The notes beneath the pieces were generated by a model. The model was not told where the DNA came from and did no database searches. It was given only the letters and a program-made list of their open reading frames with translations. A program made the position numbers and the translations under genes. A stretch of 64,000 nucleotides of DNA from Candidatus Pseudoruminococcus merdavium. GTDB lineage: Bacteria; Bacillota; Clostridia; Oscillospirales; Ruminococcaceae. Below, piece after piece: positions 957 to 34,748 of the stretch (position 1 is the first letter of the stretch; every line of letters starts with the position of its first letter). The stretch spans positions 1 through 64,000 of the forward strand of contig CAJFSS010000007.1 in assembly GCA_904419745.1 (NCBI GenBank), read 5' to 3'.

Positions 957-985
957 TTGACAAAACCCTTTCTCCCATGTAAAAT
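957..985 (+). promoter_or_regulatory. sigma-A-type promoter for feoAB: TTGACA, a 17 bp spacer, then TAAAAT
   Basis: TTGACA at 957..962 and TAAAAT at 980..985, about 90 bp upstream of the feoA start codon. Confidence 0.5.
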
Positions 986-1031
986 GATAGCTGTGGATAA
1001 CATTTTGTCCACCTTCTTTTTTACAATTAAT

Positions 1032-1047
1032 GTTAGTCTAAACTAAC
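1032..1047. promoter_or_regulatory. Candidate operator, the inverted repeat GTTAG-TCTAAA-CTAAC, in the feoAB 5' UTR
   Basis: Perfect 5 bp inverted repeat with a 6 bp spacer, lying between the predicted promoter and the feoA start codon. The same motif is found at 33773..33788, and with one mismatch at 29519..29534. Confidence 0.45.
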
Positions 1048-1074: not shown

Positions 1075-1308
1075 ATGACACTGGACCAAATCAAGCCGGG
1101 AGAATCCGGGACGATTACCCAAGTAGCAGGGGAAGGACTTTTGCGCCGCCGTCTGCTTGATATGGGGCTTACTCCTAAAACCCGAGTGTCCGTACGCAAA
1201 GTCGCTCCAATGGGAGATCCCATTGAACTGATGCTGCGCGGGTATGTGTTGACAATTCGCAAGGAGGAAGCTGCCAAAATTACCGTAAGAAAGGAGACAT
1301 CCCGATGA
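1075..1308 (+). CDS. feoA: ferrous iron transport protein A (FeoA)
   Basis: 77 aa with an FeoA/SH3-like fold pattern (MTLDQIKPGESGTITQVAGEG...RLLDMGLTPKTRVSV...). Ribosome-binding site GGAAGGGGAAAC. The stop overlaps the feoB start as ATGA. Confidence 0.85.
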   Translation: MTLDQIKPGESGTITQVAGEGLLRRRLLDMGLTPKTRVSVRKVAPMGDPIELMLRGYVLTIRKEEAAKITVRKETSR

Positions 1309-3410
1309 GCAGTCCCACAATTACATCGCAGACACATGCTTCCCAGGAAGCGGGGAAACATCGCCGCCATACAACAGAGCTTTTGCAGAAAAATCTTCTC
1401 TTTGCACTGGCGGGAAACCAAAACTCTGGAAAAACCACTTTATTCAATGCTCTAACCGGGAGCAATCAGCATGTGGGCAACTTCCCCGGCGTTACGGTAG
1501 AACGAAAAGACGGTGCGATGAAGGGGCACAGAGAGGCGGTTGTCGTTGACTTGCCGGGGATTTACTCGCTTTCCCCCTATACCTCAGAGGAAATTGTTAC
1601 CAGAGATTTCTTAATTAAAGATCACCCGGATGCCATTATCAACATCGTGGATGCCACCAATATTGAGAGAAATCTCTATTTAAGCCTTCAGCTCATGGAA
1701 CTTTCCATTCCCATGGTGATTGCGCTGAACATGATGGATGAAGTCCGTGCCAGCGGAAACTCCATTGATGTACAAAAACTTTCGGAACTGCTTGGCATCC
1801 CGGTTGTCCCCATCTCAGCAAGCAAAGGGGAAGGCATTGATGAACTCACCGAAATTGCCCTGCGTACAGCCAGACAGGGAATCCCGCCCAAAAAGATGGA
1901 TTTCTGCACGGGGGAAGTTCATAAGGCCATCCATGCCATTGCGCATGTTATTGAAGAACAAGCCCAGGAATACGGTTATCCCCTGCGTTTTGCTGCCACG
2001 AAACTGGTGGAAGGGGATGAACCGACCATGCAGGCGCTGCACGTCACAGAAAATCAACGGGATATTCTGGGACATGTCATTGATGATATGGAAGCCGCGC
2101 TGGATACCGATCGAGAGGCTGCCCTGGCGGATATGCGCTACAATTTTATCGAAAACCTCTGTGCCAAATGTGTGGTCAAACGACATGAAACACATGAACA
2201 GGTGCGCAGTGAAAAAATAGATAGGATTTTAACCCACAAATACCTGGGCATCCCCATTTTCTTTGTCATTATGCTGGTAGTGTTTTGGCTCACATTCGGT
2301 GTAGTGGGGAGTTTCCTCAGCGGCCTGTTTGAATCCGGAGTGAACTTCCTTGTGGACAGTCTTTCCTCTCTGCTTACTCATATTGGCGTCAGCGATTGGA
2401 TGCATTCGCTGGTTATTGATGGAATCTGTGCCGGCGTGGGGAGTGTGCTCTCCTTCTTGCCAGTCATTGTCCTGTTGTTTTTCTTCCTATCCCTGCTCGA
2501 AGACAGCGGATATATGGCACGTGTAGCATTTGTCATGGATAAACTGTTGAGAAAAATTGGACTTTCCGGACGTTCCTTTGTTCCCATGCTCATCGGATTT
2601 GGCTGCAGTGTCCCTGCTATTATGGCAACCCGTACCCTTTCCAGCGAGCGTGACCGGAAAATGACGATTGTGCTCACCCCTTTTATGTCATGCAGCGCAA
2701 AACTTCCCATTTATGGGATGTTTACTATGGCGTTTTTTCCAAATCATGCTGGTATTGTTATGATCTCCGTATATATTATTGGGATTATAGTGGCAATCCT
2801 TTCCGGGCTTTTGCTCAAAAACACAGTTTTCCGTGGAAAGCCTGTCCCCTTTGTCATGGAACTCCCCGCTTATAGAATCCCATCTGCCAAAAGTGTTTTG
2901 CTCCACATGTGGGAAAAAGCGAAAGACTTTATCCGCAAAGCATTTACCATCATTTTTCTCGCTTCCATGGTTATCTGGTTTTTGCAGAGTTTTGACTGGT
3001 CGTTTAACCTGGTAACTGATAATACTACCAGCATGCTCGCTTCCATTGGCAAATTCATTGCCCCTATCTTTACTCCACTTGGCTTTGCAGATTGGCGTGC
3101 ATCCACCGCACTGATTACTGGAATTACAGCAAAAGAAACCGTTGTCAGCACCTTTACCGTTTTGACCGGTGCTTCCACTAACGCTGAACTTACCACCATG
3201 TTGCACATGGTATTCCCTTCTACACTGACTGCTTTCTCTTTCCTGGTATTCACAGTGCTGTACATGCCCTGTATTGCAGCATTTGCTGCTTCCCGGAGAG
3301 AACTCGGTTCTATGAAGAGTGCTCTTGGCACCGCATTGTTCCAAACTTCCATGGCTTATCTGGTTTCCCTTGTGATCTTCCAAGTTGGAAGGTTGATTCT
3401 GGGAATATGA
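1305..3410 (+). CDS. feoB: ferrous iron transport protein B (FeoB)
   Basis: 701 aa. N-terminal G-domain with the G1 motif GNQNSGKTTLFNALTG, followed by a polytopic membrane domain typical of FeoB. Confidence 0.95.
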   Translation: MSSPTITSQTHASQEAGKHRRHTTELLQKNLLFALAGNQNSGKTTLFNALTGSNQHVGNFPGVTVERKDGAMKGHREAVVVDLPGIYSLSPYTSEEIVTRDFLIKDHPDAIINIVDATNIERNLYLSLQLMELSIPMVIALNMMDEVRASGNSIDVQKLSELLGIPVVPISASKGEGIDELTEIALRTARQGIPPKKMDFCTGEVHKAIHAIAHVIEEQAQEYGYPLRFAATKLVEGDEPTMQALHVTENQRDILGHVIDDMEAALDTDREAALADMRYNFIENLCAKCVVKRHETHEQVRSEKIDRILTHKYLGIPIFFVIMLVVFWLTFGVVGSFLSGLFESGVNFLVDSLSSLLTHIGVSDWMHSLVIDGICAGVGSVLSFLPVIVLLFFFLSLLEDSGYMARVAFVMDKLLRKIGLSGRSFVPMLIGFGCSVPAIMATRTLSSERDRKMTIVLTPFMSCSAKLPIYGMFTMAFFPNHAGIVMISVYIIGIIVAILSGLLLKNTVFRGKPVPFVMELPAYRIPSAKSVLLHMWEKAKDFIRKAFTIIFLASMVIWFLQSFDWSFNLVTDNTTSMLASIGKFIAPIFTPLGFADWRASTALITGITAKETVVSTFTVLTGASTNAELTTMLHMVFPSTLTAFSFLVFTVLYMPCIAAFAASRRELGSMKSALGTALFQTSMAYLVSLVIFQVGRLILGI

Positions 3411-26598: not shown

Positions 26599-28710
26599 TT
26601 ACAGGATTCGTTGCTGTTTCAACTTTTCCTTCGCATCTTTATGCAGCAGGTTTTCCATACTTTTTAAGCTGATGGCAAGCGTTGAGGCATTGTGCAACAA
26701 GGCAGATGTAGTGGGTTGTATCATTCCACCAACCCCCAGGGCAATCAATGTCCCGTTAATTGCCAAAATGGATTTATAATTTCGGTCGATCCGGCGCATC
26801 ATAGCGGTACTCAGCCGTCGTAGCGTGAGTAACTCCCGTAAATTGTCCGCCCCGATCGTGATATCGGCAATTTCCCGTGCAATCTCCGCCCCATCGCTGA
26901 TGGCGATTCCAACGTCTGCCGCGGACAGCGCCGGAGAATCATTGATCCCGTCCCCAATCATGACAACTCCGCTGCCCCGCTCCCGCTCTTTCAGGACAAA
27001 GTTTGCCTTATCTTCCGGCAGGACTTCAGAATAATATTCGTCCACGCCAACTCTTGCCGCAATAGCCGAAGCCGTGCGCTCGCTATCCCCTGTCATCATG
27101 ACTATTTTCCGGAACCCCTCCGTCTTCAGTTGCGCGATGACTTCAATTGCTTCTTCCCTTAGAGGGTCTTCAATCAGGATCACCGCTGCAAGTTCTCCAT
27201 CCATAGCCAGATAAAGATGGGAAAACTCTGTCGGAAGCCGCTCAAAGCGTTCCTGATATTCCTCCCGTATCTTACAGCCTTCATCTTCAAAAACAAAATG
27301 ATGGCTCCCGATAATAACCCGTTTGTCCCCGATGTAGGAAGTAATACCGTGCGCGACAATATAATCCACTTTGGAGTGCATTTCCTCATGCTCTAAATGC
27401 TGTTGCTGCGCCGCACGCACCACCGCTTTGGCCATGGAATGCGGAAAATGTTCTTCCAGGCAGGCCGCCACTCTCAGCATCTCTTGTGCGTTAAAATCCC
27501 CGAACGGCACGACCTCTTTTACGGTAGGCTGCGCCTTTGTAAGCGTCCCGGTTTTATCAAAGACGATGGTGGACGCGCAAGACAATGCCTCCAGATACTT
27601 TCCGCCTTTGACAGTAATATGATGGGCACTTGCTTCCCGGATAGCGGAAAGCACTGTAATTGGCATAGCAAGCTTTAGCGCGCAGGAAAAATCCACCATC
27701 AGGACAGACAGTGCCTTTGTCAGATTGCGTGTAAACAGCCCGACTAAGAGCGTCCCAAGAAAAGTATAGGGCACCAGACGATCTGCCAAGTGCTCAGCTT
27801 TCCCCTCCACGGCGGACTTAAGTTTTTCCGATTCCTCAATCATGGTGATAATTTTTTCATAGCGGGTCGAACCAGAGACCTCTTTGACCCGGATGGTAAG
27901 CTCTCCTTCTTCTACGACCGTACCCGCATAGGCATAGCTGTCCACTTCTTTTTTCACCGGAAGGCTTTCGCCAGTCAGAGAAGCCTGATTAACCATCGCC
28001 TCTCCTCCTACCACAAGCCCGTCAAAGGGGATCAGATTGCCCATATGGACTACCACTTCATCGGCGGGCTGTATTTCCGAGGCGTCTACCAGGATTTCCT
28101 GTCCCTCCCGCTTAAGCCAGACCTTGCCCACATTTAAGGACATACTGCGTGCCAGATCCCCGACGGATTTCTTATGCGTCCATTCTTCCAGAATTTCTCC
28201 AATTCCAAGCAGGAACATCACAGAACTAGCCGTACGGAAGTCTCCGCGCACAATGGAAATTCCAATTGCCGTTGCATCCAACACAGGGACTTCCAGTTTC
28301 TTTTTGCACAGACACTGAAAACCATGGCGGAGATATTTGAGAGATTTAAACACAATATACCCTGCCCGGACCGGAGTGGGCAGGAACTTGGTAAACAGGT
28401 GCAAAACCGCTTTCCCGATCAGCTTTTCCCGGTATTTGGCATTCAGTCTACGCCCGGAACTTTCCAACACCGCCTGTGGCACGTCCACTTTTTCATACCG
28501 GAACCCTTTCAGGGCAATTATCAGCTGTTCCCGGCTTCCGGTATAAAAAATCGCTGCATCCGCTGTCTGTTCGTAAACTTTCGCCTTGGTGACATAGCTG
28601 AGGCTTTCCAGAAAATAAAGCAGGGTATCCGCCTGTTCAAAAGACATCTTCGCCTGTACCATATGAATACGGATACGCCCGGACATCTCATGTTTGATAA
28701 CAAATTTCAC
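26599..28710 (-). CDS. P1B-type ATPase with an 'SCA' transmembrane motif (P1B-6-like, substrate uncharacterised)
   Basis: 703 aa. Motifs DKTGTLT and GDGINDSPAL. The transmembrane helix carries SCA (MVDFSCALKLAMP) where CPC is usual. The N-terminal domain has a ferredoxin-like fold but lacks CxxC. Confidence 0.85.
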   Translation of the reverse strand: MKFVIKHEMSGRIRIHMVQAKMSFEQADTLLYFLESLSYVTKAKVYEQTADAAIFYTGSREQLIIALKGFRYEKVDVPQAVLESSGRRLNAKYREKLIGKAVLHLFTKFLPTPVRAGYIVFKSLKYLRHGFQCLCKKKLEVPVLDATAIGISIVRGDFRTASSVMFLLGIGEILEEWTHKKSVGDLARSMSLNVGKVWLKREGQEILVDASEIQPADEVVVHMGNLIPFDGLVVGGEAMVNQASLTGESLPVKKEVDSYAYAGTVVEEGELTIRVKEVSGSTRYEKIITMIEESEKLKSAVEGKAEHLADRLVPYTFLGTLLVGLFTRNLTKALSVLMVDFSCALKLAMPITVLSAIREASAHHITVKGGKYLEALSCASTIVFDKTGTLTKAQPTVKEVVPFGDFNAQEMLRVAACLEEHFPHSMAKAVVRAAQQQHLEHEEMHSKVDYIVAHGITSYIGDKRVIIGSHHFVFEDEGCKIREEYQERFERLPTEFSHLYLAMDGELAAVILIEDPLREEAIEVIAQLKTEGFRKIVMMTGDSERTASAIAARVGVDEYYSEVLPEDKANFVLKERERGSGVVMIGDGINDSPALSAADVGIAISDGAEIAREIADITIGADNLRELLTLRRLSTAMMRRIDRNYKSILAINGTLIALGVGGMIQPTTSALLHNASTLAISLKSMENLLHKDAKEKLKQQRIL

Positions 28711-28814
28711 TTAAGATTCCTCCACTGGTTAGACGTCCTGCTGGAAAATAATTTTCCTCCAGCAGGAAAACGGGGCCTTGCCTTCCCCACAGGCTAGCCC
28801 CGAAACCATCATTC

Positions 28815-29093
28815 TTATTCTGCCTCGTTGTCGTTTTCTTCAACAATCCTTGCCGCTTCCTCAGCAGCTCTTTTCTCATTGACTTGCTTAGCTTCCGCAA
28901 AGATATCCTCTGCATTTTCCTGAATAGTGGTAGCGGTTTTCATCACGGATTCCTTTGCACGCAGAGCGGCTGCGGTACACTGGACGTATGCTTTCTTTGC
29001 ATCTTTGCTGGAAAGAAGTTTGATTCCAGCCGTACCAAACAGAACGCCTCCTAAAAACAAACCTACATTTTTCATTGTGCCAATTTTAAACAT
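28815..29093 (-). CDS. YtxH-like small protein: an N-terminal hydrophobic helix followed by a coiled-coil
   Basis: 92 aa starting at MFKIGTMKNVGLFLGGVLFGTAGIKLL, with the ribosome-binding site AAGGAGGAGA. Lies upstream of the SCA ATPase on the same strand. Confidence 0.55.
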   Translation of the reverse strand: MFKIGTMKNVGLFLGGVLFGTAGIKLLSSKDAKKAYVQCTAAALRAKESVMKTATTIQENAEDIFAEAKQVNEKRAAEEAARIVEENDNEAE

Positions 29094-29273
29094 TATGGTC
29101 TCCTCCTTTATTTGTGTCTGTAACCGGTATAAAAAAGCATGATGAAACATACTAGTGCCGCAAAGGCCCAAAAACGGTGCCGTTTCATGTCTCCAATTCC
29201 TCCCTTATTCAAGGATGTTCTCGGTACTCCGTGATTTTCCTGCGCCTTGGATTGTGTACAACAGGATCAAGGG

Positions 29274-29483
29274 CTAGACGAGTATTTTACCGGCCATTTC
29301 CCTGCTGATGGCAACCCGGGAGTTTTTTATGTTTACTATCAAGTTACCGCCGAGTGTAGAAACTACCGTAACTCTCGCCCCAACAACAAAACCGATATCC
29401 TGTAAATGGGATTTCAATCCCTCAGAGCCTCCCACTTTCTTAATAACCTGTTCGATCCCTGCAGGAGCCAGTGTCAACGGCAT
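29274..29483 (-). CDS. free-standing FeoA-family (SH3-like) protein
   Basis: 69 aa with the FeoA domain pattern: MPLTLAPAGIEQVIKKVGG...LQDIGFVVGARVTVV...IVNIKNSRVAISREMAGKILV. Confidence 0.75.
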   Translation of the reverse strand: MPLTLAPAGIEQVIKKVGGSEGLKSHLQDIGFVVGARVTVVSTLGGNLIVNIKNSRVAISREMAGKILV

Positions 29484-29518: not shown

Positions 29519-29534
29519 GTTATCTATAGCTAAC
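29519..29534. promoter_or_regulatory. Candidate operator GTTAT-CTATAG-CTAAC upstream of the feoA-like gene, one mismatch from the GTTAG-N6-CTAAC motif
   Basis: It lies inside a larger palindrome AAAGTTATCTATAGCTAACTTT, 36 to 51 bp upstream of the start codon. There is an extra GTTAG half-site at 29548..29552. Confidence 0.4.
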
Positions 29535-29680
29535 TTTTGGTTCTAAAGTTAGTCTTGCACAACCACTTGCGCTATTATATCACCGTTCAAAAAACTTGTC
29601 AATGCAGAGAAAATATCCTCAAAACTCTGTTTTTTAGTCAGATATTATATGCAGTATAAACAATTTTCGTCTTAGAGTTT

Positions 29681-31396
29681 TTATTTCTTTATAGTTTTAG
29701 AACATTCTTGGACTGTCTCCTCTATGGCAGTACCGTTTTCCAAACGGATAATCCGATTGCAACCGGTCAGGGTGGACATTCTATGGGAAATAATTAAAAG
29801 CGTTTTATCCGGATATTCTTCCCGCAAGGTTTTGAGCAACTCTTTTTCGTGGAGGACATCTAAACTGCTGGTCGGTTCGTCCATAACAACCACGTCGGGA
29901 TCCACCAGCATAACTCTGGCAATACCGACTCTTTGGCGTTCGCCTCCGGAGAGCCTTGCTCCCATCTGCCCCATCTGGGTCTGATAGCCATCCGGCAGCG
30001 TGGAAATGAAATCATGCAGGCCGGCTCTTCTGGCGGCATTGCGAATTTCCTTCATCGAAGCCTCCGGTTTACCAAGCGCGATATTTTCCGCAATGGTTCC
30101 ATTAAAAAGAAACGTATCCTGTTCCAGTACTGCTATTCTGCGGTGCAATTCCTGGAGGGAGAGTTGTTGTACAGGGATTCCGTTCATTTTTATGGAACCG
30201 CTCACCGGGTTCCAAAACCTCAGCAATAAACGGAAAACCGTTGATTTTCCCACACCGCTTTCCCCAACAATTCCAACCTTATCTCCACGTTTAATTACAA
30301 GGTTCATCCTTTTCAGGATATCCTTACTGTTTTCCGCATAGTGAAACGACACATTTTCAAACGAAATGCTCTCAATTGGGCCAAGTGTTCTCGGATGTTC
30401 TGTCTCTGTAATTTCAGGCCTGGTATCTTCAATGATAAATAACCGTTCTGCAGCGGCAAATGCTTCCAGCAAGCTGGAAACCACCATAGTCAATGAAAAA
30501 GTAGAGGAAAAGGACGCCACGGCAACAAACGAGATAACAACAGTCCCCACTGGATTTTGCGAACCCGAACCGGCTAGATAGGTGGCCACCGCCAAAATCA
30601 GGATGCGGGCAAGATACACAAAAAAGGTCGGCGTAGAGGAAACCGTCTGCCGGTGCAGGGTCAGACCATGTGCCGCACGATTGACCTTTTTATTCTGTTC
30701 CTGTACTCTTGCAAGCTGATCGTGTCCATACCCAAAAATCTGGATATCCTTAATTCCATAGACGCTTTCCAGAACAAGCGACTTGATTTCCCCAAGGCGC
30801 GTCCGGTAACGCATCCCAATAGGTCTGCCCGCTTTCATAGCAATCAGAGGAAGCACGATACTGATAATTAGATAAATTGGAAGCAAAACTGCTGCATACA
30901 ATGGATGGAAAAAAAGCGCCAAGCCCAGTGTGACACAGGGTAGCAGGATAACGGTAAACATTGGGCCAATAGTATGAGCGAAAAAATACTCAATCGTCTC
31001 AATATCCGAAACTGCAACATTCAGGATATCTCCTTTTTTCCTGTCCATCAGGCAGGCTGGCGCAAGTTTGCGGATAGTTTCAAACAGGTGGATTCGCATG
31101 CTGGCAAGTAACTTATAGGCGCCCGCATGAGAGGCCACGCCTTCCAAATATCGGCAGATAACAATCATAAGTCCGCAGACCACCATCAGAATTCCAAACA
31201 GGATGGGAGAACCGGAAGTGAGTTTTCCCGCACAGGACAGGATTAACAGTGCGCCAAATCCCATCAAACCCATATGCGACAGGTTTCCAAAAACACTCGC
31301 CAAAGTGGAAACAGTCAAATACCCTTTGACTGGGGAAGCAATTTTTAAAAGCCGTCCTACCATTTCCCGAATGGAATATTGGAATTTCTGTCTCAT
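29681..31396 (-). CDS. ABC exporter, fused permease and ATPase half-transporter (subunit 2 of a heterodimer)
   Basis: 571 aa. An N-terminal domain with six transmembrane helices, then Walker A GESGVGKST, the signature LSGGERQRV and Walker B VVMDEPTS. Confidence 0.85.
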   Translation of the reverse strand: MRQKFQYSIREMVGRLLKIASPVKGYLTVSTLASVFGNLSHMGLMGFGALLILSCAGKLTSGSPILFGILMVVCGLMIVICRYLEGVASHAGAYKLLASMRIHLFETIRKLAPACLMDRKKGDILNVAVSDIETIEYFFAHTIGPMFTVILLPCVTLGLALFFHPLYAAVLLPIYLIISIVLPLIAMKAGRPIGMRYRTRLGEIKSLVLESVYGIKDIQIFGYGHDQLARVQEQNKKVNRAAHGLTLHRQTVSSTPTFFVYLARILILAVATYLAGSGSQNPVGTVVISFVAVASFSSTFSLTMVVSSLLEAFAAAERLFIIEDTRPEITETEHPRTLGPIESISFENVSFHYAENSKDILKRMNLVIKRGDKVGIVGESGVGKSTVFRLLLRFWNPVSGSIKMNGIPVQQLSLQELHRRIAVLEQDTFLFNGTIAENIALGKPEASMKEIRNAARRAGLHDFISTLPDGYQTQMGQMGARLSGGERQRVGIARVMLVDPDVVVMDEPTSSLDVLHEKELLKTLREEYPDKTLLIISHRMSTLTGCNRIIRLENGTAIEETVQECSKTIKK

Positions 31397-33150
31397 TTCT
31401 CTTCACCTACTTCCCTGTGTTCTTCCAGATTAGCCTGTTCCGTTACCAATTGGTAATACAAGCCATGGTTTTGCATTAAATCTTCGTGCCGGCCGCTTTC
31501 AGAAATTTTTCCGCCCGACAGGACATAAATACAGTCCGCATTCTGAATCGTGGACAGCCTGTGTGAAATGATGATAAGCGTCCTTGTCATGGCAAGCCTG
31601 TCCACACAACTCCAGATTTCCTGCTCACTCTGGATATCCACACTGGAAGTTGCCTCGTCAAAAATAATATATTCCGCCTTGCAGAGCAGGGCGCGGGCAA
31701 TTCCGATCTTTTGGCGTTGCCCTCCGGAAAGTTTTCCCCCGCTGTCTCCGACATCGGTATCAAGACCATCCGGCAGTGTATCCACCCAGTTTTTTAACCG
31801 TACCTGTTGCAGTGCCTCCAGCATTTCTTCTTTGGTGGCATCCTTTTTAGCTATCCTCAGGTTGTCCGCAATTGTGCCGGAGAAAATACTGACGCTCTGG
31901 GGAACCATAATAATCCGTTTCCTAAGCTGTTCTGGGGTAAAACTGTAATAATCTTTTCCTTCGAGTGTGATGCGCCCATTCGATGGGTCAAAAAAACGCA
32001 TCAAAAGCCCCGCGATAGTGCTTTTTCCACAGCCGGATAATCCGGCAAGAGCGGTTACCTTTCCTTTCGGGATGGTCAGGGAAACATCGGTTATCGCGGC
32101 GTTACGCCCTGTATAAGAATGTGAAACATGTTCCATTCGGATTCCTTCATAGACATCCTTGTCTATTGGCAAGGCGGGATCATAAGGGCGAGAGGTATCG
32201 ATATCAAGCAGATTTTCCACTTTTTCTGCTGCTGATACCCCGCTGAGCGCAGTATGGGTCGCATTCATCAGTTGGCGCACCGAGTCAAAAAAGCTATAAG
32301 AGAGCAGCAAAATCATCAGAGCAGAGGTAAAGAGAATGTCCCCCTGCAAAAGTCCCGCACTGACAATTCCCATCGCAATCAGGATGGAACAGTAAATCAT
32401 ACCATCCGTGAGCAGGAAGGATGAAAAATTCACCTTCATAACATCCATGATTTTCCGGTTAAAAGCATCTGCCTTTTTGCTAAGAACTTTAGTCCGTTCA
32501 CCGTCCTGTTCATAGAGTTTAAAAGTCGTCAATCCCTGTACGCTTTCCAAATAGTAGCCAGTTAAATCCTCCATGGAGTTCCAGTATTCGGTTTTTAGCG
32601 TTTCAATTTTAGAACGGAAAATATTGTTGATAGGAAGCAGAACAAATGATACGGCAAACAGCAGAATTGCCACTGACAAAGAAGAGTTCTTTAATTGAAA
32701 AAACAGGTAAATGGGAGCGCACATGCAATAAATCAACCCCGGAAGGTATTGACTATAATAGGTCTGCATGGATTCCACCCCATCCACAGAGGATGTTATC
32801 GCAGAAACAGGCCCGATTCTCTCAATGTTCCCGGCATCCAGCTCCAGTACCTTGGAAAAAATTTTTGTACGCAGGGCAGTCCGTGCCTTTGCAGTACAGC
32901 GGTACTCCAACTCACCGCGTAATAGTTCAGAACAGAATGTAACTGCTGCAATCACGAGCGCGGACAGAATAGCAGAACCGGCTGTTTCTATTGTTACGGA
33001 TGGGGAATCAATATTTCCAAGGAATCCGGAAATGGTTTTTGCAAACGCTGTAATTCCAATTAATGTAACCAGTTTGACAATAACAATAGCAAAAATCCAT
33101 CCCCACAGCCCTTTTGCCAGCCGCAAGAGTGTTTTGTTAAGTAAAAGCAT
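31393..33150 (-). CDS. ABC exporter, fused permease and ATPase half-transporter (subunit 1)
   Basis: 585 aa. Walker A GLSGCGKST, signature LSGGQRQK, Walker B IIFDEATS. Its stop overlaps the start of the downstream paralog. Confidence 0.85.
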   Translation of the reverse strand: MLLLNKTLLRLAKGLWGWIFAIVIVKLVTLIGITAFAKTISGFLGNIDSPSVTIETAGSAILSALVIAAVTFCSELLRGELEYRCTAKARTALRTKIFSKVLELDAGNIERIGPVSAITSSVDGVESMQTYYSQYLPGLIYCMCAPIYLFFQLKNSSLSVAILLFAVSFVLLPINNIFRSKIETLKTEYWNSMEDLTGYYLESVQGLTTFKLYEQDGERTKVLSKKADAFNRKIMDVMKVNFSSFLLTDGMIYCSILIAMGIVSAGLLQGDILFTSALMILLLSYSFFDSVRQLMNATHTALSGVSAAEKVENLLDIDTSRPYDPALPIDKDVYEGIRMEHVSHSYTGRNAAITDVSLTIPKGKVTALAGLSGCGKSTIAGLLMRFFDPSNGRITLEGKDYYSFTPEQLRKRIIMVPQSVSIFSGTIADNLRIAKKDATKEEMLEALQQVRLKNWVDTLPDGLDTDVGDSGGKLSGGQRQKIGIARALLCKAEYIIFDEATSSVDIQSEQEIWSCVDRLAMTRTLIIISHRLSTIQNADCIYVLSGGKISESGRHEDLMQNHGLYYQLVTEQANLEEHREVGEEK

Positions 33151-33327
33151 ATAATTTTCCCCCTGTCTGTTTTTTCAGTAAAAGCGTTCCCCTGTATCCC
33201 GATACAATTTTCTTTCTGCCACAGGGAAAAGCGGGAAGCAAACCGCTGCACCGTCTTTCAATTTTCAATATTGACCCATGATGTCCTAGGCCCATCCTAA
33301 TTACTTTCACAAACGGACCACAGGATA

Positions 33328-33723
33328 CTAGGTATTTTGCTCTGACGGGCCGACTCCATTTTTCAGAAAATATTGTTTCAGCGCTTCAAAGCTCTCCGCA
33401 CTAAGGGCATGCTCCATCCGACAGGCGTCCTTCATGGCAATATCCTTGTCTACACCTAGGCTGCACAGGACATCGGAAAACAGAAGATGCCTCTCATAAA
33501 TGGTTTCCGCCAGTGTCCTTCCCTGTTTCGTGAGGGAAATCTCATGGTTCTCTCCCATCTGAATATATCCACCGTTTCTCAGGTTTTTCATCGCTACGCT
33601 GACGCTCGCTTTAGAGACATTCAGTTGCGCCGCAATATCCACCGAGCGTACTGCGGCGCCGGTACGGTTTTGTAAAATCAAAATCATTTCCAGATAATCT
33701 TCACCGGACTCCATAATTTTCAT
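33328..33723 (-). CDS. MntR/DtxR-family metal-dependent transcriptional regulator (no C-terminal SH3 domain)
   Basis: 131 aa. It aligns with B. subtilis MntR across the HTH and the dimerisation/metal-binding domain (SGEDYLEMIL..., ...ERHLLFSDVL..., ...MEHALS...). Confidence 0.8.
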   Translation of the reverse strand: MKIMESGEDYLEMILILQNRTGAAVRSVDIAAQLNVSKASVSVAMKNLRNGGYIQMGENHEISLTKQGRTLAETIYERHLLFSDVLCSLGVDKDIAMKDACRMEHALSAESFEALKQYFLKNGVGPSEQNT

Positions 33724-33772
33724 GTTTTGCCTCCCTTCATAAATTCTATATTATTTGTCTTATTCGCCCTCG

Positions 33773-33788
33773 GTTAGATACAGCTAAC
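33773..33788. promoter_or_regulatory. Candidate autoregulatory operator GTTAG-ATACAG-CTAAC upstream of the MntR-like gene
   Basis: Perfect 5-6-5 inverted repeat, 50 to 65 bp upstream of the regulator start codon. It overlaps the likely -35 region, and a TAATAT -10 element lies downstream. Confidence 0.45.
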
Positions 33789-34006
33789 TACAAGAGAAAA
33801 AATACAGGAATTCCCCACAAATTGTCGGAAAAATCCAATTAAATAATATTTTACTATAATCTCTCTTTTCGGTCAAGTCAGTTTGCTTTCCCTCTAAAGA
33901 CTTCAGCCGGTAGCAGAAGATGATAGACAATCCTCTGGTTCCTATATCACCTTTTCTTTCATTTTCCTTTATTTTTTATCACAAAAATTGAACAACTCCT
34001 GAAGAG

Positions 34007-34060: not shown

Positions 34061-34567
34061 TTATCGTCCGGAAGGAGACGGAACCAGACGGTCAAGGACA
34101 TGAGTCTTTTTCAGGGCATACAAAATAGCGATAGAAATTGTTGACCCCCCAACAGTACTTACCATAAATGGAATGACATAGGCAAACAGTGCAGTCTCCT
34201 GTGTCATGACAAAAGCAGCAATGGGATATGCCGCCAATGCGCCAAGGAATCCCGTGCCGATAACCTCTCCCAAATAGGCAAGAGGAAGGCGCTTAGTATA
34301 GCGGTACAGCATGCCACAGCAAAACGCACCGACCATACTTCCAGGGAACGCAAGCAAGCTCCCGGTACTCGTCATTACACGGATAAGCGAGGTCACAAAC
34401 GCCATCCCCAATGCATACCACGGCCCCAAAATCACGCCTGCCAGGACGTTCACCATATGCTGAATGGGAAAACACTTGGAAGCCCCAACCGGAATATAAA
34501 ATGCTGAGCATACCACACCCAGCGCAATCAGGATTCCTGCCATTGTCAGTTTTTTTGTCTTACTCAT
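34061..34567 (-). CDS. thiW: ECF-transporter S component ThiW (thiazole/thiamine-precursor transporter)
   Basis: 168 aa small polytopic membrane protein (MSKTKKLTMAGILIALGVV...) immediately downstream of a TPP riboswitch. Confidence 0.7.
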   Translation of the reverse strand: MSKTKKLTMAGILIALGVVCSAFYIPVGASKCFPIQHMVNVLAGVILGPWYALGMAFVTSLIRVMTSTGSLLAFPGSMVGAFCCGMLYRYTKRLPLAYLGEVIGTGFLGALAAYPIAAFVMTQETALFAYVIPFMVSTVGGSTISIAILYALKKTHVLDRLVPSPSGR

Positions 34568-34599: not shown

Positions 34600-34735
34600 C
34601 CACCTCAGGCGCACCCCATAACAGTGACGAGAAAAGATTCCCAGCACAAAACTGATGTCCCTACGTTGGCATTATCCAAATCAGGTTATGGGTCGAAACT
34701 TCCAGTTTCCTCTCAGCCTGTCTCACAAGCTCCCC
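34600..34735 (-). promoter_or_regulatory. TPP (THI-box) riboswitch
   Basis: The minus-strand transcript contains GGCTGAGAGG...ACCCATAACCTGATTTGGATAATGCCAACGTAGGGA, matching the conserved THI-element cores CUGAGA and ACCUGAUCUGGAUAAUGCCAGCG. It lies 5' of thiW. Confidence 0.8.
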
Positions 34736-34748
34736 TTTTTCGTTTTTT

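Follow-up and report, generated by a model that had tools for sequence, protein, structure and literature searches.

The 64,000 nucleotides of Candidatus Pseudoruminococcus merdavium analysed here (contig CAJFSS010000007.1, positions 1 to 64,000; hereafter the window) contain, on the minus strand, a gene for a 131-residue metalloregulator of the DtxR family (33328..33723). An inverted repeat, GTTAG-N6-CTAAC, stands before this gene and also before genes of metal transport. The question raised by this locus is whether protein and repeat belong together as regulator and operator, which genes would be governed by them and which metal would be sensed. Taken as a whole, the data are best explained by an SH3-less DtxR-family metalloregulator that binds GTTAG-N6-CTAAC as a dimer and represses its targets in a metal-dependent manner, with Fe2+ as the most likely metal, and this explanation is considered probable.

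Two exact copies of the repeat are present in the window: 33773..33788 (GTTAGATACAGCTAAC, GTTAG-ATACAG-CTAAC), in the leader of the regulator gene itself, and 1032..1047 (GTTAGTCTAAACTAAC, GTTAG-TCTAAA-CTAAC), in the leader of the ferrous-iron uptake operon feoAB (1075..3410, plus strand). A third site with one mismatch, 29519..29534 (GTTATCTATAGCTAAC; GTTAG-CTATAG-ATAAC on the gene strand), is the proximal imperfect operator in the leader of a minus-strand cluster that encodes a FeoA2-type protein, a DUF6110 protein and a P1B-6-type ATPase (26599..29483). These three sites had been reported in a sequence-only reading of this DNA, and their sequences and coordinates proved to be correct when the window was read again; the extra GTTAG half-site mentioned there belongs to a distal imperfect operator of the same leader, 29548..29563 (GTTAG-TCTTGC-ACAAC, or GTTGT-GCAAGA-CTAAC on the gene strand), with two mismatches. 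It had also been claimed that the motif was unlikely to occur by chance. This holds for the exact repeat, as two copies were found in 64 kb against 0.03 expected and none of 100 dinucleotide shuffles reached two. It does not hold within the window for the third site: three sites with at most one mismatch compare with 0.72 expected and seven of 100 shuffles reached three, so that 29519..29534 is not significant from the window alone. As this count is only mildly unusual, support from outside the window was needed, and the comparative data described below rescue the site. A weight matrix built from related loci gives scores of 19.3-21.4 to the three sites; the next best match in the window, with 6.6, is 29548..29563. 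A possible weak second feoAB site (986..1001, GATAG-CTGTGG-ATAAC, two mismatches, matrix score 3.2) lies directly after the -10 element of feoAB; by itself it is indistinguishable from chance, and its position recalls the start-proximal operators of two related loci, L161 and L081 (L-numbers are the labels of the related loci fetched for comparison).

The motif was counted in 160 related loci (1.55 Mb). Eighty of them carry homologues of the regulator with 55-75% identity and come from Clostridia isolates and metagenome-assembled genomes (873 kb), with strains of Anaerostipes, Sellimonas and Frisingicoccus among the cultured carriers, and the other 80 were picked solely through the ATPase (673 kb). 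Exact sites numbered 102 in the regulator set and 53 in the ATPase set, and these 155 sites compare with 0-5 for each of 29 permuted half-sites; a chance origin of the motif was ruled out by these controls together with the shuffles. In the regulator set, where about 88% of the DNA is open reading frame, 92 of the 102 sites are intergenic. An unbiased count of dyads, which covered all 5-mer inverted repeats with gaps of 0-12 in 80 upstream regions, ranked GTTAG-6-CTAAC first by a wide margin (35 of the 80 regions). The gap is essentially fixed at 6, with one stray region each at gaps 2 and 11, and no other 5-mer dyad with a gap of 6 was enriched (at most 5 regions, as against 35). The extended consensus is R-GTTAG-YWWWWR-CTAAC-Y, and tandem copies are separated by 25-28, 34 or about 60 bp from start to start. 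Of 82 regulator genes, 38 are preceded by sites at a distance of 300 bp or less, mostly as two or three copies in tandem. FeoA2-type genes, to which the ATPase-linked feoA-like gene of the window belongs, show the association without exception: in each of the 34 cases where the upstream sequence was long enough, a site lies no more than 200 bp away, an exact one in 33 cases and one with a single mismatch in the other. Judged over the 160 loci, the repeat is a genuine and strongly conserved cis-element, linked to the regulator family and to feo genes.

What kind of protein would recognise such an element is suggested by its layout. The spacing had been thought to differ from that of IdeR/DtxR and MntR boxes, and the operator to be perhaps novel, a view that has to be abandoned. 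The DtxR/IdeR consensus, TTAGGTTAGCCTAACCTAA, accommodates two dimers, bound to opposite faces of the helix (PMC7762939). In the structures of S. erythraea IdeR with DNA each subunit takes one CCTAA repeat, the dimers taking repeats 1+3 and 2+4 of TTAGGTTAGSCTAACCTAA, and the site of a single IdeR dimer is the 14-bp TTAGGNNNNCCTAA, in other words TTAG-N6-CTAA (PMC8464063). In enterobacteria the MntR box, AACATAGCnnnnGCTATGTT, reads CATAG-N6-CTATG and is also a 5-6-5 repeat (PMC1698941). Since the one-dimer core of IdeR and the MntR box share this layout, 5-6-5 can be regarded as the norm of the family. The classical 19-bp IdeR box was also considered and rejected: 1032..1047 fits it by eye at 15 of 19 positions, but GTTAG-N1-CTAAC, the overlapping two-dimer layout, occurs in none of the 80 upstream regions and the spacer carries no CTAA signal. 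The resemblance arises because the one-dimer unit is common to both.

The regulator itself matches PF01325 (Fe_dep_repress, the N-terminal winged helix; residues 3-55, 40.7 bits against a cut-off of 26) and PF02742 (Fe_dep_repr_C, the dimerisation and metal-binding domain; residues 65-118, 49.9 bits against 27). No further Pfam domain was found in the 131 residues, and there is no SH3-like C-terminal domain, the alignments stopping at about residue 120. Among solved structures E. coli MntR (2h09) is the nearest, with 62.6 bits, ahead of Bacillus MntR and of DtxR/IdeR. Scores stay below the cut-offs of the NCBIfam equivalogs, both for DtxR (NF053665, 34.7 against 290 bits) and for MntR (NF008273, 95.3 against 153; NF003025, 66 against 138). 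The Pfam, structure and NCBIfam comparisons agree with the earlier description of the protein as an SH3-less DtxR/MntR-family regulator. The family comprises more than 3000 clusters at E<=1e-10, whose annotation goes no further than "metal-dependent transcriptional regulator" or "DtxR family Mn-dependent transcriptional regulator". Full-text searches of the literature brought up no account of this regulator of Clostridia or of its regulon, which may nevertheless have been annotated computationally before; the protein is an uncharacterised DtxR-family member with a regulon that is predicted, and well supported, by sequence comparison.

The predicted metal ligands of the window protein are D9, E12, H79, C101, E104 and H105. 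In DtxR numbering (D/N/M)10, E13, H79, C102, E105 and H106 are found in 81 of 81 aligned proteins, so that the primary-site columns (10, 102, 105 and 106) read (D/N/M)-C-E-H throughout. The window protein has Asp at position 10, where most homologues have Asn and 4 of 80 have Met; the Cys at position 102 is invariant (81/81). From the ancillary site of DtxR (His79, Glu83, His98) only H79 is kept; position 83 is Ser, and position 98 is Met in the window protein and variable among homologues. Compared with the ligands of MntR (D8, E11, H77, E99, E102, H103), five of six are matched and the E99 column is Cys in every family member. The predicted ligand set is a hybrid, in which an MntR-like N-terminal pair is combined with the Cys of DtxR in place of Glu99. 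The recognition helix reads SKASVSVAMKNLR. In IdeR, Ser37 and Pro39 contact the T of CTAA and Gln43 reads the inner C (PMC8464063); Ser37 and Pro39 are kept in the regulator family and Gln43 is replaced by Val. The motif, in which the inner base is free, would fit this replacement together with the retention of the T-contacting residues.

In the related loci the commonest setting is a regulator gene divergent from a feoA2-feoA1-feoB operon, with the sites between them. The motif also recurs before (DUF2325)-DUF3793-flavodoxin operons, genes for ZIP transporters, a second DtxR paralogue, a Fur-family gene and DUF3737; no mntH, mntABC or sitABCD targets were seen adjoining sites in the 160 loci. 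The flavodoxin operons lie at L046:6428-7764, L020:7433-8727, L081:2449-3459 and L129:3115-4329, and the association of motif and flavodoxin would place DUF3793 and DUF2325 in a metal-scarcity response. ZIP genes are found directly behind operators in two unrelated loci (L001:3217-4032, minus strand; L094:3583-4368, plus strand), and the second of them is co-directional with DUF6110 and P1B-6 ATPase genes. Two operators precede the Fur-family gene in L129 (2345 and 2404) and in the identical loci L126, L133, L137, L140, L149 and L153, a pattern suggestive of cross-regulation that involves the DtxR-type regulator and a Fur paralogue. Besides, an exact operator is present inside the feo operon, in the short feoA1-feoB gap, in at least 12 loci (L009:5209, L016:5262, L018:5059, L033:4423, L037:5029, L038:3850, L047:5250, L053:5242, L064:5345, L077:2645, L079:5339 and L146:836); it could mark an internal promoter or serve as a roadblock.

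In the window, the predicted targets include feoAB and the ATPase cluster. The feoAB operon consists of feoA (1075..1308, plus strand; Pfam FeoA) and feoB (1305..3410, plus strand; Pfam FeoB_N, Gate and FeoB_C). The second cluster, on the minus strand and syntenic in L161, comprises the FeoA2-type gene (29483..29274), the gene of the small membrane protein DUF6110 (29093..28815, the longest open reading frame starting at 29171) and the P1B-6-type ATPase gene (28710..26599; no CxxC in the protein). Pfam comparisons bear out how these neighbours had been described, namely as feoA, feoB, a FeoA-like gene, DUF6110 and an SCA-type P1B ATPase. The motif of the fourth transmembrane helix of the ATPase, VDFSCALKL, with SCA at residues 342-344, fits the definition of the P1B-6 ATPases, a still poorly understood subfamily (PMC13460109). 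As regards the P1B-6 pattern N-X18-H-N-X-(S/T), which lies between the fifth and sixth transmembrane helices, HNAS is present at 673-676, the nearest upstream Asn being 20 residues off and not 18. The DUF6110 protein is formed by one N-terminal transmembrane helix and an Ala/Glu-rich helix, and its gene precedes a P1B-6 ATPase gene in many of the loci L081-L160.

Exact sites directly precede the DUF6110-ATPase pair in the L105-L120 groups, and in other loci sites reach the ATPase via co-directional genes (HMA/FeoB-associated in L081, ZIP in L094, DUF3793-flavodoxin in the L129 group). The sequence-only reading had linked Fe2+ uptake and a P-type ATPase to one metalloregulator. The ATPase cluster is indeed a plausible member of the regulon, as indicated by its conserved half-sites, by the exact site upstream of the ATPase relative of L081 (77% identity) and by the 34 of 34 FeoA2-type genes with a site. 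The link is nevertheless not a general one: since a site in the 1 kb upstream is carried by only about 20% of the close ATPase homologues, and none was found upstream of the ATPase in L042 and L054, the ATPase is better described as a facultative member.

Both imperfect sites of this cluster are kept in L161, whose regulator is 91% identical and whose gene order is the same (thiW, regulator, two genes of ATP-binding cassette (ABC) proteins, feoA, DUF6110, ATPase). The compared feoA2 leader sequence is 86% identical overall, with an unchanged promoter. The half-sites are identical at 20 of 20 positions, the "mismatched" bases included, and 9 of 12 spacer positions differ (3/6 in 29519..29534 and 6/6 in 29548..29563). 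The operator spacers (29519..29563 in the window, about 10150..10195 in L161) look faster-evolving than the neighbouring non-coding DNA. In the regulator leader, L081 has two operators, L161 only the start-proximal one and the window only the distal one, which aligns with the second operator of L081; the alignment points to site turnover between species with at least one operator retained.

How the sites would act can be judged from their position relative to the promoters. The predicted regulator promoter, TTGACC-17-TAAAAT (33848..33876, minus strand), is conserved in the window, L161 and L081. The predicted feoAB promoter is TTGACA-17-TAAAAT (957..985, plus strand; 11/12 matches), and the FeoA2/DUF6110/ATPase genes have a consensus promoter, TTGACA-17-TATAAT with an extended -10 TG (29574..29602, minus strand; 12/12), which is conserved in L161. 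If transcription starts 7 nt after the -10 element, the regulator site covers about +54 to +69 (50 bp before the ATG), the feoAB site +41 to +56 (28 bp before the feoA ATG), the proximal ATPase-cluster site +34 to +49 and the distal one +5 to +20. All the window sites, from about +5 to +69, are then located behind consensus-like promoters, in predicted leaders. The regulator site had been placed over a -35 element; the promoter at 33876..33848, kept in three species, puts it downstream, in the leader. At the canonical feoA2 promoter of L064 the space between -35 and -10 holds one operator and the transcription start is covered by another, which is classical repressor geometry. Because operators lie over or just behind promoters, repression by the metal-loaded dimer is proposed.

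Two features of these leaders are of interest in their own right. In L064 (5888..5916) a half-site of the promoter-proximal operator doubles as the extended -10 element (TGCTAACAT), and in canonical feoA2 promoters this half-site reads TGCTAACAT or TGCTAATAT; ATTAG is the commonest one-mismatch variant of the half-site because of this double use. The feoA leader contains a terminator-like hairpin (993..1012) and a T-run directly after the predicted start, and in the fold computed for the segment 986..1075 (-24.8 kcal/mol, z = -3.8) the ribosome-binding site is base-paired, the operator palindrome lying at its apex. According to this folding model, an additional control at the RNA level may exist.

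The proposed mechanism can be summarised as follows. One metal-loaded dimer would occupy each 16-18-bp operator, R-GTTAG-N6-CTAAC-Y, with a spacer that is AT-rich and otherwise unconstrained. Such an operator corresponds to the one-dimer TTAG-N6-CTAA unit of the DtxR/IdeR box, used as separate, often tandem sites. When metal is plentiful, the holo-repressor at feoAB, at the ATPase cluster and in its own leader would block initiation or early elongation; when metal is scarce, the feoAB, ATPase-cluster and regulator genes would be released. Fe2+ is favoured as the sensed metal, with reasonable but restrained confidence, because of the invariant Cys, which offers a sulfur ligand, and because of a predicted regulon with feo and flavodoxin genes. 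Sulfur ligands raise the selectivity for Fe2+ (PMC10317159).

Several points weigh against this explanation. The motif is assigned to the regulator by association only, and about half of the regulator genes lack an upstream site. No alternative motif was found upstream of these site-less regulator genes; autoregulation seems simply to be absent in them, the sites being located in other parts of the locus (e.g. L020, L022 and L024). Repression from +41 to +69 requires a roadblock mechanism, which is less usual. P1B ATPases are normally exporters, and their induction under metal scarcity is counter-intuitive; moreover, even within 2.7 kb only about 44% of the close ATPase homologues have a site. 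As far as the metal is concerned, Asp or Asn at position 10 together with E12 is MntR-like and not the Met of IdeR, and the best matches among structures and NCBIfam models are MntR proteins. Finally, according to reviews, SH3-less DtxR proteins are not responsive to Fe2+ in vivo (PMC7762939), and low-GC Gram-positive bacteria use the DtxR family only for Mn (PMC10317159).

The latter points lead to Mn2+ as the main rival to Fe2+: the same protein and operators would constitute a Mn2+-responsive MntR system, and the Feo-type, ZIP and P1B-6 ATPase proteins would handle Mn or both Mn and Fe. Links to Mn or Zn have been drawn for some FeoB paralogues and for CtpC, a P1B-6-like ATPase of mycobacteria. 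The best match in the PDB and the best NCBIfam models are, as said, those of MntR, and D9, E12, H79, E104 and H105 correspond to five of the six ligands of B. subtilis MntR; the operator layout equals that of the enterobacterial MntR box (PMC1698941), and the DtxR-family proteins of low-GC Gram-positives are assigned to Mn in reviews (PMC10317159). However, the regulator remains far under the MntR equivalog cut-offs (95 against 153 and 66 against 138), Glu99 of MntR is an invariant Cys in 81 of 81 family members, neither mntH nor mntABC was seen as a target in the 160 loci, and flavodoxin operons, a classic iron-sparing response, recur among the targets. Mn2+ is for these reasons regarded as an unlikely, though serious, candidate.

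It is also conceivable that the operator is real but belongs to another transcription factor, such as a Fur-family paralogue, which would count the DtxR-family gene among its targets. The two sites before the Fur-family gene in the L129 group would agree with this, as would the regulator homologues without an upstream site (about half) and the many sites of ATPase loci with no DtxR gene in the flanks. Nevertheless, TTAG/CTAA with a 6-bp gap is exactly the one-dimer core of IdeR (PMC8464063) and closely resembles the MntR box (PMC1698941). The motif agrees with the contact residues of the regulator, and the 38 of 82 regulator genes preceded by sites are usually divergent from feo. In contrast to GTTAG-N6-CTAAC, the boxes of Fur, Zur and PerR are AT-rich and built as 7-1-7 or 9-1-9 repeats. 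A half-site typical of the family and the association with the regulator gene make another binding protein quite improbable. Still more remote is the idea that the inverted repeats are RNA hairpins of 5' leaders, engaged in attenuation or translational control, and not DNA operators. Every window site lies in a predicted transcribed leader, the 29519 site extends to a 9-bp stem (-7.0 kcal/mol), and the fold of the feoA leader mentioned above sequesters the ribosome-binding site. On the other hand, the arms are conserved in sequence without covariation, as the permuted half-sites also indicate (0-5 against 155), single mismatches are uncompensated, and the core of the regulator site forms a 5-bp hairpin of -2.6 kcal/mol (z = 0.1) that is no stabler than shuffled sequences. 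Sites are found in divergent promoter regions too, between -35 and -10, and no Rfam family matches at the operator sites. A hairpin or riboswitch at the sites was rejected on these grounds, since it is sequence and not pairing that is conserved.

If the explanation by a metal-dependent DtxR-family repressor is correct, its consequences reach beyond this locus. The operator is easily scanned and gives a testable regulon (feoAAB, flavodoxin with DUF3793/DUF2325, ZIP, and P1B-6 ATPase with DUF6110), by which several domains of unknown function and the P1B-6 ATPases would be assigned to a context of metal scarcity. With Fe2+ as the metal, neither the SH3-like domain nor Met10 would be required for iron sensing in the DtxR family. 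A broader proposal, put forward only tentatively from these comparisons, is that an SH3-less, Cys-containing DtxR-family protein may be the Fe2+ sensor in many gut Clostridia (Oscillospiraceae, Lachnospiraceae and relatives of Ruminococcus), where it would run the iron-starvation response (feoAAB, DUF3793-flavodoxin-DUF2325, ZIP), alone or beside Fur, and where the P1B-6 ATPase with its DUF6110 and FeoA-like/HMA partners would be induced by iron starvation. Iron regulation in the dominant butyrate-producing and fibre-degrading gut Clostridia is largely unstudied, and the Fur paradigm of C. difficile is usually assumed. The proposal, if true, would break with the textbook rule by which the DtxR family serves low-GC Gram-positives for Mn only. 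It would also provide a first functional clue for the P1B-6 (SCA) subfamily, as a pump for Fe2+ acquisition or metallation or as an exporter of competing metals; the link of the regulator to the P1B-6 ATPase/DUF6110 module is the most interesting lead.

Some neighbouring features of the window complete the description. Two genes for CydD/CydC-like ABC exporters (29681..33150, minus strand) are located directly downstream of the regulator and are syntenic in L161 and L001; they may, with some uncertainty, be co-transcribed with it. Regulator and ABC genes are separated by a gap of 177 bp, for which no promoter was predicted. This gap contains a conserved weak hairpin, AGCGG-N8-CCGCT followed by TTTT (about 33215..33245 on the minus strand of the window, about 6480..6510 in L161), which may be a leaky terminator. 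A thiamine pyrophosphate riboswitch (RF00059, 60.3 bits; 34641..34746, minus strand) lies upstream of thiW (34567..34061).

Among the known systems, Fur of well-studied clostridia such as C. difficile is a functional analogue: its regulon there covers feo genes and flavodoxin (PMC6311696), and targets of these kinds are also found behind the operators described here, although Fur is an unrelated protein family with an unrelated AT-rich box. The CtpC-PacL1 "effluxosome" of M. tuberculosis (PMC13460109) resembles the DUF6110-ATPase module in its layout, since a small protein with a single transmembrane segment and an Ala/Glu-rich helix precedes the ATPase. CtpC has CPC where the window ATPase has SCA, PacL belongs to DUF1490, and the regulation of a detoxifying exporter is opposite to the induction at metal scarcity suggested for the window ATPase. 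B. subtilis MntR is a two-domain protein as well, and at some promoters it uses adjacent sites cooperatively (PMC11882963), which recalls the tandem operators; its box has another sequence, and its arrays activate efflux genes from upstream, whereas the sites described here overlap or follow the promoter.

The closest parallels are found within the DtxR family itself. E. coli MntR (2h09), the nearest solved homologue, is a two-domain protein with the same 5-6-5 layout and an identical TAG-N6-CTA core (PMC1698941). Both it and, by prediction, the window regulator seem to be autoregulatory and to control transporters. They differ in the half-site (CATAG instead of GTTAG), in the Glu99 equivalent, which is Cys here, and in the targets, which are mntH and sitABCD in enterobacteria and, as predicted, feoAB and flavodoxin here. 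In IdeR/DtxR (C. diphtheriae DtxR, M. tuberculosis and S. erythraea IdeR) an SH3-like domain and a full ancillary site are present, Met10 takes the place of the Asp of the window protein (Asn, and in a few cases Met, in its homologues), and Gln43 that of Val. The overlapping 19-bp box for two dimers contrasts with separate, often tandem sites 25-28 or 34 bp apart, and the inner G/C is conserved in the IdeR box, whereas in the Clostridia motif it is the outer G/C (GTTAG/CTAAC). These proteins nevertheless share with the window regulator the winged helix-turn-helix and the dimerisation and metal-binding domains, with Cys102-Glu105-His106 kept, and their operators share the TTAG/CTAA core and the association with iron-uptake genes, whose repression we infer here.

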